This document shows positions 30,649-33,461 of a DNA stretch of 64,000 nucleotides, in pieces. The position numbers and the translations under genes were made by a program. The DNA lies in IMG/VR virus record IMGVR_UViG_3300035698_010154, positions 12,835 to 76,834 of that record; one strand, 5' to 3'. How positions within the stretch are numbered: position 1 is the stretch's first letter; each line of letters begins with the position of its first letter. The notes under the pieces are model-generated. The model made no database searches. It was not told the DNA's origin and saw only the letters and a list, made by a program, of their open reading frames with translations. This DNA is from a virus.

Positions 30649-30864
30649 ATGAAACTAGAAATTGAATCTGTAGAATTAAAAAACTTCCTATCTTATGGAA
30701 GTCGAGTTCAGAAGATACCCTTCCTAAAGGGATTAAATCTTGTTACGGGTATCGACCTGGATCGCAAGAGGAGTAATGGATCCGGCAAATGTGTGAGAGC
30801 TGATACTCTTATAGAGATTGAGTCTACAGAAAAAATAATAAAAATTTTAAAAGAATACAAATAG
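30649..30864 (+). CDS. gp46: gp46 N-extein fused to a 24-aa split-intein N-fragment
   Basis: KNFLSYG and Walker A SNGSGK followed by CVRADTLIEI.. (Cys1 at 30790), then stop. Confidence 0.88.
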   Translation: MKLEIESVELKNFLSYGSRVQKIPFLKGLNLVTGIDLDRKRSNGSGKCVRADTLIEIESTEKIIKILKEYK

Positions 30865-30960
30865 CTATAGTAAGGAGGCTATTTGTATGACTAAGATTTA
30901 TCCAACAGAACAAGGTAAATGTTTGTATATGGAGCATACTAACACTATATATTAACAATA

Positions 30961-31068
30961 AGAATTGATCACTTAAAAAAAGTGGATATAATAGTATGGG
31001 AAGATGATTGGACAAATAATAAAGAATTGGTGATAAAAGAATGTTGTGTGAAATTGGAAAAGTTGTAA
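30961..31068 (+). pseudogene. Relic of a Vsr/DUF559-like homing endonuclease C-terminus
   Basis: Reads RIDHLKKVDIIVWEDDWTNNKELVIKEC between the two gp46 halves. Confidence 0.5.
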
Positions 31069-33461
31069 GATTATATAAAGAGCATCCAGAGTATAAAGGA
31101 CAAATTTTTGTAAATACTCCTTATGGTATGAGACAAATAATTGATGCCGATGTTATTGAAAAAAATTCCGAACAATTCAGGCTAGTAACAGAATCGTTTG
31201 AATTATTTGGATCTGGACTTCATAGAGTAAAATGTAATGACAATTGGAGATACTTAAAAGATATACAAAAATGGGATTCTGTCAATACCATAAATGGTGA
31301 AGAAACAATACAAGAGTGTTATAAAATAGATGAAAAATGTGATCTATATGATATACAGGTAGAGGGTGTTAAACAATATTACTCTAATGGTATATTATCA
31401 CACAACTCTTCATTTTTAGAATCCGTGCCTTTCGCCTTGTTCGGTCAAGTACATAGGAACATCAATAAGAAGCAAATTGTCAACTGGAAGAACCGGAAGC
31501 ATTGTGAAGTCTCGCTTGATTTCAGAGTAGGTGAAGATCAGTACAGAGTATCAAGAGCCATCAAGCCTGATAATTTTGAGATATACAAGAACTCAAATTT
31601 AATAGACAAGCCTTCTCATGTAAAAGAGTATCAAGCCCAACTGGAAGAGATAATTGGTCTAAATTATAAAACATTCATGTCTCTTATCCACTCTAACATC
31701 AACTCATCGGCTAAAATATTGACAATGGGTAAGCCCGAGAAAAGAAAACTCATAGATATGATGTTCGGATTGACTGTGTATAAGGATATCTCTGACCTTG
31801 CAAACAAGAAACTGAGAGTCATAACCGAGAAACTGAGAGAGATAGAACTCACTGGCTCTTCAAACACAGACAGGATAAGTGATCTAAAGAGTACAGTAGA
31901 TGATCTTGAGTACAGGGCCTCAAAGAAACCAATTCAGTATACTCAACTCAAAGAGAAAGAAGAAGAGCTTGAAGAGCTGAACGAGATTATGGATGAGTCC
32001 AAAGAGGAGTTAGAGAATAAAAGGACTCTACTAGCTGGTGAAGAGAGTACACTAAAGTATCTTGAAGGCATAATAGTCAATGTAGACAACTCGGGATATA
32101 AGCTTGGCTTGAAGTTAAAGAATATAGATGAATTACTGCTGAAGTCCGTTGATGTCGAGAGGATCAAGAAAGACAACAAACAATATAATGAATCATTAGA
32201 TTTGTTGAAAACAGAGTTTGGTTCACTAGATGAGATAGAGTTAAAGTTGAATAGTAAGAGAAAGGAAATATCTGAACTTGAGATAGAGATTGGTACTATA
32301 AAGAATAGTCTTGATACATTAGAGAGTGAAATGACAAGGCTTAAGAGAGACAAGATCAAATCGGCTGCCAAACTTGAGAAACTTGAATCGGATATATGCC
32401 CAACGTGTAATCAAAAGATAGCCGATGATTCGTTATTGAAAGAAGAGCGAAAGAAGATGAAAGTTGTTGATCTAAAGATGGAAAAGGTTAACGAGAAATC
32501 ACTTCGACTCAATAATGGGCAACTAAAAAATAAACTAACTCTACCAAAGCTGAGTGGCACAGAGAATACACTTGATGATGTTTATAAACAGATGATTCAT
32601 ATAGGCAATCATATAGTGAATGTTGACTTCTCAGATAACGTAGATGAACTGAAAAGCAATAAGACAAGGTATGAACGAACTAATGAAAAACTGAGTAGCC
32701 TACATAAGAGCCTTAGTACTGATAAGTTCGATGTAGGCAAAACCATATCATTGTTGACAGAGAGGGTTGAGGAACTACAGAAAAGAGTATCAAAGGTATA
32801 TGATCTTGAGCAAGAAATAGTCAAGTTACAGGAATTCATAGAGTTGGAGCGGAAGAACCAACTAGAACTAAAAACACTCATAGACTCAAACAAGAAAAAG
32901 ATTGCAACCCTGAATAAGAACACAAGTGAGTCAGTCAAAAAGAGCGAAACATTGATGAACTTGAAGAACTATGTATCATGTATAAAGGATATATGCAAGG
33001 ATGAGAATATAAAACAGTATGCCATATCATCCGTTATGCCTTATATCAATGAACGAGCTAATCACTACCTGTCAAAAGTTAACTACTCATTCTATGTTAT
33101 GTTAGATAAGTGGTTAGAAATGGAAGTAAAGGGCCCTGGTATAGTTAATGCATCCTATGGGTCGCTGTCAGGTGGCGAATCGAGAGGAATTGATATAGCG
33201 ATACAATTAGCATTCCTTGATGTGTCGAAATTGAGAGCCAGCATATTTCCTGACTTTTTGACATTAGATGAGTTATTGGATTCTTCAATTGATAGTGGTG
33301 GCATCTCACAACTGTTTAAGATCATAAGCTTGAAACAAAAGAAGGACGATTCAAAAACTTTCATCATTTCCCACAGGAGTGAGCTAGATGATGCCGATTT
33401 AATTGATAATGTTTATCACGTATCAAAGCGTAATGGTTACTCAACTGTGGAAATAAGATAA
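31041..33461 (+). CDS. gp46: Split-intein C-fragment (122 aa) fused to gp46 C-extein (Rad50/SbcC-like)
   Basis: Intein ends YYSNGILSHN/S at 31406; extein has CPTC zinc hook, LSGGE, LDE, ISH. Confidence 0.9.
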   Translation: MLCEIGKVVRLYKEHPEYKGQIFVNTPYGMRQIIDADVIEKNSEQFRLVTESFELFGSGLHRVKCNDNWRYLKDIQKWDSVNTINGEETIQECYKIDEKCDLYDIQVEGVKQYYSNGILSHNSSFLESVPFALFGQVHRNINKKQIVNWKNRKHCEVSLDFRVGEDQYRVSRAIKPDNFEIYKNSNLIDKPSHVKEYQAQLEEIIGLNYKTFMSLIHSNINSSAKILTMGKPEKRKLIDMMFGLTVYKDISDLANKKLRVITEKLREIELTGSSNTDRISDLKSTVDDLEYRASKKPIQYTQLKEKEEELEELNEIMDESKEELENKRTLLAGEESTLKYLEGIIVNVDNSGYKLGLKLKNIDELLLKSVDVERIKKDNKQYNESLDLLKTEFGSLDEIELKLNSKRKEISELEIEIGTIKNSLDTLESEMTRLKRDKIKSAAKLEKLESDICPTCNQKIADDSLLKEERKKMKVVDLKMEKVNEKSLRLNNGQLKNKLTLPKLSGTENTLDDVYKQMIHIGNHIVNVDFSDNVDELKSNKTRYERTNEKLSSLHKSLSTDKFDVGKTISLLTERVEELQKRVSKVYDLEQEIVKLQEFIELERKNQLELKTLIDSNKKKIATLNKNTSESVKKSETLMNLKNYVSCIKDICKDENIKQYAISSVMPYINERANHYLSKVNYSFYVMLDKWLEMEVKGPGIVNASYGSLSGGESRGIDIAIQLAFLDVSKLRASIFPDFLTLDELLDSSIDSGGISQLFKIISLKQKKDDSKTFIISHRSELDDADLIDNVYHVSKRNGYSTVEIR

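Follow-up and report, generated by a model that had tools for sequence, protein, structure and literature searches.

A gp46 gene divided in its Walker A motif by an atypically split intein, and the endonuclease relic between its halves, in an uncultured T4-like phage

How can a phage obtain an intact Rad50/SbcC-like ATPase from a gene that is cut within its P-loop? This question is raised by the gp46 gene found in a stretch of 64,000 nucleotides (hereafter the window; positions 12,835 to 76,834 of the IMG/VR record IMGVR_UViG_3300035698_010154), which lies within a 76.8-kb viral contig of an uncultured T4-like salt-lake phage, estimated to be 32% complete. The gene is carried as two open reading frames (ORFs), each bearing at the break one part of an intein, and from the sequence it is very probable that this split intein rejoins the two gp46 pieces by class-1 protein trans-splicing. 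The features of the locus are the following, where a slash in a motif marks a splice junction.

30649..30864, plus strand: ORF1, 71 amino acids, comprising the 47-residue gp46 N-extein and the 24-residue N-terminal intein fragment (IntN), the latter reading CVRADTLIEIESTEKIIKILKEYK
30649..30789, plus strand: gp46 N-extein, 47 residues, ending in NGSGK, the first part of Walker A; matched by phrog_77
30790..30864, plus strand: IntN, 24 residues with Cys1, a beta hairpin and a short helix; TAG stop codon at 30862-30864
31041..33461, plus strand: ORF2, 806 amino acids, comprising the 122-residue C-terminal intein fragment (IntC) and the 684-residue gp46 C-extein
31041..31406, plus strand: IntC, 122 residues, with helix alpha1 at residues 5-14, the block-B His61, the block-F Asp104 and the terminal His121-Asn122
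31407..33461, plus strand: gp46 C-extein, 684 residues from Ser+1, completing Walker A as GSGK-S

The preliminary description of this DNA had placed the cut of gp46 in Walker A and the second ORF 176 bp further on in another frame, and these coordinates were confirmed. The cut separates the Lys of the motif from its Ser, with GSGK/C at 30789/30790 and ...NGILSHN/SSFLESV at residues 122/123 of ORF2. In the PHROG profile of SbcC (phrog_77) residues 1-47 of ORF1 correspond to positions 294-333 and residues 123-804 of ORF2 to positions 334-953 (E 1.5e-82 for the C-extein), so the two pieces abut exactly and represent consecutive parts of one protein; Pfam recognized AAA_23/SMC_N and Intein_splicing weakly. 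The halves form two separate ORFs of the same strand, ordered as in the host gene; the first has a stop codon and the second a start codon of its own. A search of GenBank phage DNA with the gp46 region gave no match.

The insertion is precise when compared with an allele that lacks it. A close relative (L003), a viral contig whose flanking genes share 70-84% DNA identity with the window, has an uninterrupted gp46 of 731 amino acids, equal to 47 plus 684, joined as ...NGSGK/SSLLESV. DNA homology between the two breaks at 30790 and returns at 31397, while the N-extein is 89% identical to residues 1-47 and the C-extein 72% identical to residues 48-731 of the uninterrupted protein.

As the window comes from a metagenome-assembled contig, it could be supposed that the intein is contiguous in nature and that the stop codon and the spacer are assembly or sequencing errors. 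The Logan contigs that bear on this have a depth of 2-3x, and one of their runs is possibly the source sample of the assembly. Nevertheless, contigs of three salt-lake metagenome runs reproduce the stop and the spacer without a difference (30809-31088, 30824-30974 and 30852-31002), and further contigs (30672-30826 and 31335-31577) span the two splice junctions; the window was covered by Logan contigs in parts. Each of the three forward frames of the gap contains stop codons and the halves stand in different frames, so a single insertion or deletion restores no frame; IntN and IntC already add up to a complete Hint domain of 146 residues, and the same split recurs at 61 other loci. An artefact is very improbable on these grounds: the split of gp46 at these coordinates is real, and the contigs rule out assembly error to the extent that contigs can.

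The identity of the inserted element was established by homology, by its catalytic residues and by its fold. A search with IntC in a library of 1.84 billion representatives found 201 proteins at E<=1e-3, the best at 1.7e-21, which excludes chance similarity. When the best 150 of these 201 were sorted by match position, 44 representatives were gp46 C-halves starting with IntC, 20 were gp46 proteins in which an uninterrupted mini-intein occupies the identical GK/C...SHN/S site, and the remaining ones were DnaB-like helicases, terminases, RecA-like proteins and divergent SbcC proteins. The earlier reading of a 24-residue IntN and a 122-residue IntC ending in SHN/S holds in the ORF translations, and the 146 residues together can be aligned over their full length with contiguous mini-inteins of the same site (L021, 147 residues, and P0035); IntN aligns with the IntN of at least 50 split relatives. 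The Cys1 nucleophile follows the N-extein directly, and H61, D104, H121, N122 and S123 of ORF2, all present in the window, occupy invariant columns in family alignments of 37 and 40 sequences, which makes the class 1 set (Cys1, block-B His, block-F Asp, His-Asn, Ser+1) complete. AlphaFold models of the window IntC and of a contiguous relative reached a predicted local distance difference test (pLDDT) of 91.4 and 94.4, respectively, and every top Foldseek match listed for both models was an intein or a Hint-type domain. The best PDB match was in both cases the VidaL intein 6VGV (E 1.5e-10 for the contiguous relative and 1.3e-7 for the window IntC), and superposition on the VidaL crystal structure gave template-modelling (TM) scores of 0.78-0.81 and root-mean-square deviations (rmsd) of 1.6-2.4 A (TM 0.81 and rmsd 1.6 A for the window IntC). 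The family profile also detected among PDB sequences gp41-1 (4.7e-17), CatC (1.2e-15), VidaL (2.2e-14) and NrdJ-1 (5.8e-13), all four of which are active phage split inteins. Judged by these comparisons, the window halves are a complete class-1 Hint-domain intein in two pieces with predicted splicing activity, and the suggestion of trans-splicing made beforehand gains support from the catalytic residues, the complete Hint domain and the precise insertion relative to the empty allele.

It may be argued that the intein halves merely hold the gp46 pieces together without splicing them, as there is a precedent in an Aeromonas phage, whose fragmented NrdA is assembled through domains that stem from a mobile element (PMC3045599). 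In gp46, however, the break lies inside the P-loop, and an unspliced complex would keep a domain of 146 residues between GSGK and S; besides, all splicing residues are invariant in the family, which is unexpected for binding alone. Such non-covalent assembly is improbable, and trans-splicing is the preferred explanation.

The position of the cut within the Hint fold was read from the structural models. In the contiguous model the first strand pair is followed by a family-specific short helix (construct residues 21-27), a loop, and a strand with alpha1 (35-44). The window IntC starts in the loop ahead of the canonical alpha1, which is formed by its residues 5-14 in the model, and because IntC begins in the loop and carries alpha1, the modelled break lies before this helix, at the position designated S1 (PMC13014065), with the extra helix on the IntN side. 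The S1 position is that of VidaL and PolB16, while S2, after alpha1, is that of AceL-TerL and GOS-TerL, and the natural IntN of the short type ranges from 15 to 37 residues (PMC13014065); with 24 and 122 residues the gp46 halves belong to this atypical short-IntN class. The split site is therefore not that of the TerL inteins, which the preliminary description had named as the best known of the short-IntN type: gp46 is split before alpha1 as VidaL and not after it as AceL-TerL and GOS-TerL. Neither the S2 split nor the TerL host that define the AceL/GOS-TerL (Cat) group is found in the gp46 intein, and in the Cat intein (PDB 6DSL) Cys+1 stands where gp46 has Ser+1. It is also not a cysteine-less intein with Ser or Thr at positions 1 and +1, as its position 1 is Cys.

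What lies between the two halves? The 176-bp gap noted beforehand is no anonymous spacer and contains recognizable features.

30855..30888, plus strand: hairpin of 12 bp from RNA folding, directly after the ORF1 stop, enclosing the Shine-Dalgarno sequence TAAGGAGG (30871-30878) and the ATG at 30887
30887..30955, plus strand: ORF of 22 codons behind a strong ribosome-binding site, a possible 5' relic of an endonuclease gene
30961..31068, plus strand: 3' remnant of a homing endonuclease gene (Vsr-like/DUF559), ending in IIVWEDDWTNNKELVIKECCVKLEKL and a stop codon; in a frame different from that of ORF2 it runs over the start of ORF2

The evidence for the relic comes from the nearest split relative (L005), which has an IntN of 23 residues, an IntC 61% identical to that of the window and an intact endonuclease gene of 337 codons between them. 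Translated in the ORF1 frame, the spacer (IIVWEDDWTNNKELVIKECCVKLEK) is 68% identical to the last 25 residues of this endonuclease (tblastn, E 2e-12), and the endonuclease of another locus (L010) lengthens the match to 37 residues; DNA homology with L005 picks up again at 30994. The endonuclease reading ends within the first IntC codons, in another frame, in the window as in L005, and the spacer ORFs of L005 and L010 were matched by Pfam DUF559 and MTES_1575. A free-standing endonuclease gene is intact between the halves of L005 and of about 40 other loci, while in the window the relic alone is left; by sequence similarity the spacer thus holds what is left of a Vsr-like homing endonuclease gene. 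A GIY-YIG-like reading of the spacer ORF found no support and was dropped in favour of the demonstrable Vsr-like relic. Comparison of the 22-codon ORF with endonuclease N-termini revealed no significant match, and a sigma-70-like promoter at 30965-30992 of the spacer, with 10 matches out of 12, did not exceed shuffled expectation.

Removal of the spacer at the RNA level, by a group I intron or by translational bypass, would also yield a contiguous intein, and T4-like phages are known to carry group I introns with endonuclease genes and to provide one case of ribosomal bypass. However, an Rfam scan of 30500-31500, group I introns included, returned no family at E<=1; ORF2 has its own ATG at 31041 behind GGTGA, relatives start IntC at the same Met, and their spacers vary from -17 to 1505 nt. 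This possibility can scarcely be credited beside two separately translated halves joined at the protein level.

The evidently decayed endonuclease gene shows that decay does occur at this locus, and gp46 itself might be a dead gene, broken by the mobile element and never rejoined, in a phage that lives without gp46 or uses the enzyme of its host. Against this, both exteins are of full length and the ratio of nonsynonymous to synonymous substitution rates (dN/dS) is 0.07 for both in comparison with the intein-less L003, while for the intein halves it amounts to 0.2-0.4 (IntC 0.21-0.38 against the nearest relatives; IntN 0.27 against L005) with every catalytic residue kept, so that by these estimates intein and exteins are both under purifying selection. 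Moreover, gp47 is intact, and the split gp46 form is kept across dozens of 50%-identity clusters. The chance that gp46 is dead is consequently small. The positions of gp47 and of a further gene near gp46 are given below.

28360..29352, plus strand: gp47, Mre11/SbcD-like nuclease and partner of gp46, an intact open frame of 330 codons; Pfam Metallophos, E 7.9e-10
33659..34798: RecA/UvsX-like gene

The preliminary description also held the short-IntN type to be rare, and this view has to be revised. A pattern scan of IMG/VR yielded 247 relatives, the best 80 of which were examined: 61 of the 80 loci carry the two halves on the same strand in the order of the host gene, and at 5 the intein is contiguous. 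Judged from these sequences, the split arrangement of gp46 is common in uncultured phages, where hundreds of loci carry it. The spacer lengths are bimodal, with 43 spacers of 0.9-1.5 kb and 18 of -17 to 459 nt. Most long spacers hold a single ORF of 270-437 codons, and most of those examined encode repeated motifs of the (E)YW..KG(F/Y)S..EA type; of the spacer ORFs that were scanned, most have a nuclease region of the Vsr-like/DUF559 type at the C-terminus, a single one being GIY-YIG. One apparent relative (L004) was rejected as a spurious pattern match to the word YKEHPEYK in an unrelated protein. Among cultured GenBank phages tblastn with IntC found no gp46 intein, its matches being the TerL inteins of ViI-like phages alone, at about 30% identity.

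The same Walker A site is occupied by several lineages. Lineage A, to which the window belongs, is split before alpha1 and has an IntN of 23-36 residues with a helical tail. Lineage B (L039, L042-L047, L050, L055, L057-L061, L064 and L067) is TerL-like, although placed at the gp46 site, and is split after alpha1, with an IntN of 31-40 residues beginning CFCINTKIRLRNKKTGEIIETTVGEFYE; one host site therefore bears inteins cut at two different structural positions. Lineage C (the IMG/VR loci L031-L034, L049 and L063) reads GNGK/SVTPNTKIEIE..., has Ser1 and Ser+1 and an IntN of 53-59 residues, and its N-halves end about 1.1-1.5 kb upstream of IntC. If active, the members of lineage C would be natural atypically split inteins of the Ser1/Ser+1 type, of which PolB16 is the sole one in the literature searched. 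As a separate observation, a Logan contig of run X4 matches the last 31 bases of IntC (window 31376-31406) and then passes into unrelated sequence, which suggests a related intein beside a different extein in the same community.

According to these data the following history may be proposed. An ancestral mini-intein would have resided in the Walker A loop (GxGK/S) of a phage Rad50/SbcC-like ATPase, and a free-standing Vsr-like endonuclease gene would have inserted into the DNA encoding it, at the loop that separates the first hairpin, with the family-specific helix, from alpha1, splitting the intein into an IntN of 24 and an IntC of 122 residues. Later the endonuclease gene would have been deleted almost wholly, leaving the 176-bp spacer with its last 35 codons or so and possibly the hairpin, the ribosome-binding site and the start codon. 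The gp46 halves would be translated separately, IntN would dock on the nearly complete IntC to give the Hint fold, and Cys1, the block-B His, the block-F Asp, the His-Asn pair and Ser+1 would perform class-1 trans-splicing; the predicted product is a gp46 of 731 residues with the GSGKS P-loop restored, which would work with gp47.

Several points, besides the low depth of the Logan contigs and the possible identity of one run with the source sample, weigh against this account. The association of IntN with IntC and the splicing itself are deduced from sequence, and the window sequences were folded as single chains rather than as an IntN-IntC complex. The order from contiguous intein through endonuclease insertion to endonuclease loss is drawn from three co-existing states, not from a rooted tree. 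That the hairpin, the ribosome-binding site and the 22-codon ORF may be the old 5' end of the endonuclease gene is a guess.

How do these halves relate to known systems? The closest one by structure is VidaL, a naturally atypically split intein with an IntN of 16 residues (PDB 6VGV/6VGW; Burton et al. 2020, cited in PMC13014065). The start of the family profile, corresponding to the IntC start and alpha1, aligns to residue 26 of the VidaL chain, as would be expected if both are split before alpha1, and both inteins end in ...SH(N)/S. They differ in the length of IntN, which is greater in gp46 because of the short helix after the first hairpin, and direct pairwise comparison of the gp46 intein with VidaL detected no sequence similarity. 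The PolB16 OarG intein is likewise naturally split near its N-terminus and derived from a metagenome, having an IntN of 15 residues and being cysteine-less (PMC10189870), but it has Ser1 in place of Cys1 and its similarity is distant alone (profile E 2e-4).

The genetic layout corresponds to the fractured genes described by Dassa, London, Stoddard, Schueler-Furman and Pietrokovski in 2009, where host halves with split inteins flank a free-standing Vsr-like or GIY-YIG endonuclease gene, often behind a hairpin (PMC2677866). In that study hairpins in the 5' untranslated regions of free-standing endonuclease genes were associated with translational control, and the window hairpin resembles them. 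The gp46 relatives show exactly this layout and the window keeps its relic; the differences are that the listed hosts (gp41 helicase, IMPDH, DnaE, NrdA, NrdJ, DNA ligase and terminase) do not include gp46/SbcC and that in the window the endonuclease gene is deleted. A literature search for an intein in gp46, SbcC or Rad50 found no description, its coverage being incomplete and a prior description possible. The gp46 protein is a real new host for a known type of element.

The value of the family lies in the comparison it permits within one host protein, where the contiguous intein, the split intein with an endonuclease gene and the split intein with this gene lost stand side by side. It documents the proposed life cycle of a fractured gene, from invasion by the endonuclease to the loss which fixes the split intein; the window is a clear example of endonuclease loss after fracturing, and the insertion point of the endonuclease sets the split site of the intein. 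Split inteins with a short IntN are wanted for semisynthesis and labelling, and only a few natural examples are characterised (PMC13014065, PMC10189870). The idea that a 24-residue IntN would serve semisynthesis is reasonable, but the property is not unique, as VidaL (16 residues), AceL-TerL (25 residues) and PolB16 (15 residues) exist (PMC13014065). The gp46 intein depends on Cys1 and contains further cysteines; the family as a whole, large, diverse and apparently undescribed, is a resource for intein engineering.

The same phage carries a second atypically split intein, in its terminase gene, located as follows.

51081..53248, plus strand: split TerL gene, with the N-half at 51081-51968 including an IntN of 33 residues from 51867, and the C-half at 52157-53248 including an IntC of 109 residues
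51946-52164, plus strand: ORF of 72 codons overlapping both TerL halves

The TerL intein, a member of the AceL/GOS-TerL group, has Cys1 and Cys+1, its IntC ends in SHN/C and matches the consensus CatC (PDB 6DSL) at E 1e-14, and its IntN includes alpha1. The gp46 and TerL IntC sequences are 40% identical over 70 residues, residue 8 of the TerL IntC aligning with residue 22 of the gp46 IntC; thus one phage has two inteins cut at different places, gp46 before and TerL after alpha1. If trans-splicing is true, this one phage would depend on it both for an essential recombination ATPase and for its terminase. A tentative and somewhat doubtful extension is that the gp46 Walker-A site might offer a natural reservoir, as yet untapped, of atypically split inteins of at least three forms, and that the different split positions might prevent cross-reaction between gp46 and TerL, making them a natural orthogonal pair. 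The 72-codon ORF between the TerL halves gave no match in a Pfam and PHROG scan and may be another endonuclease relic.

Two minor observations can be added. Upstream of gp46 an ORF of 116 codons (29532-29882) starts with a near-perfect internal duplication (TESTSWSN.F..GFVQWTDPA twice) and had no match in a Pfam and PHROG scan. In two proteins of 1017 and 1211 residues (P0029 and P0076, respectively) the same type of intein is situated around residues 450-570, a long way from the N-terminus, and Metallophos domains were seen in two members of the scanned protein set; proteins of this type possibly represent fusions of Mre11 with Rad50 in which the P-loop intein is contiguous.

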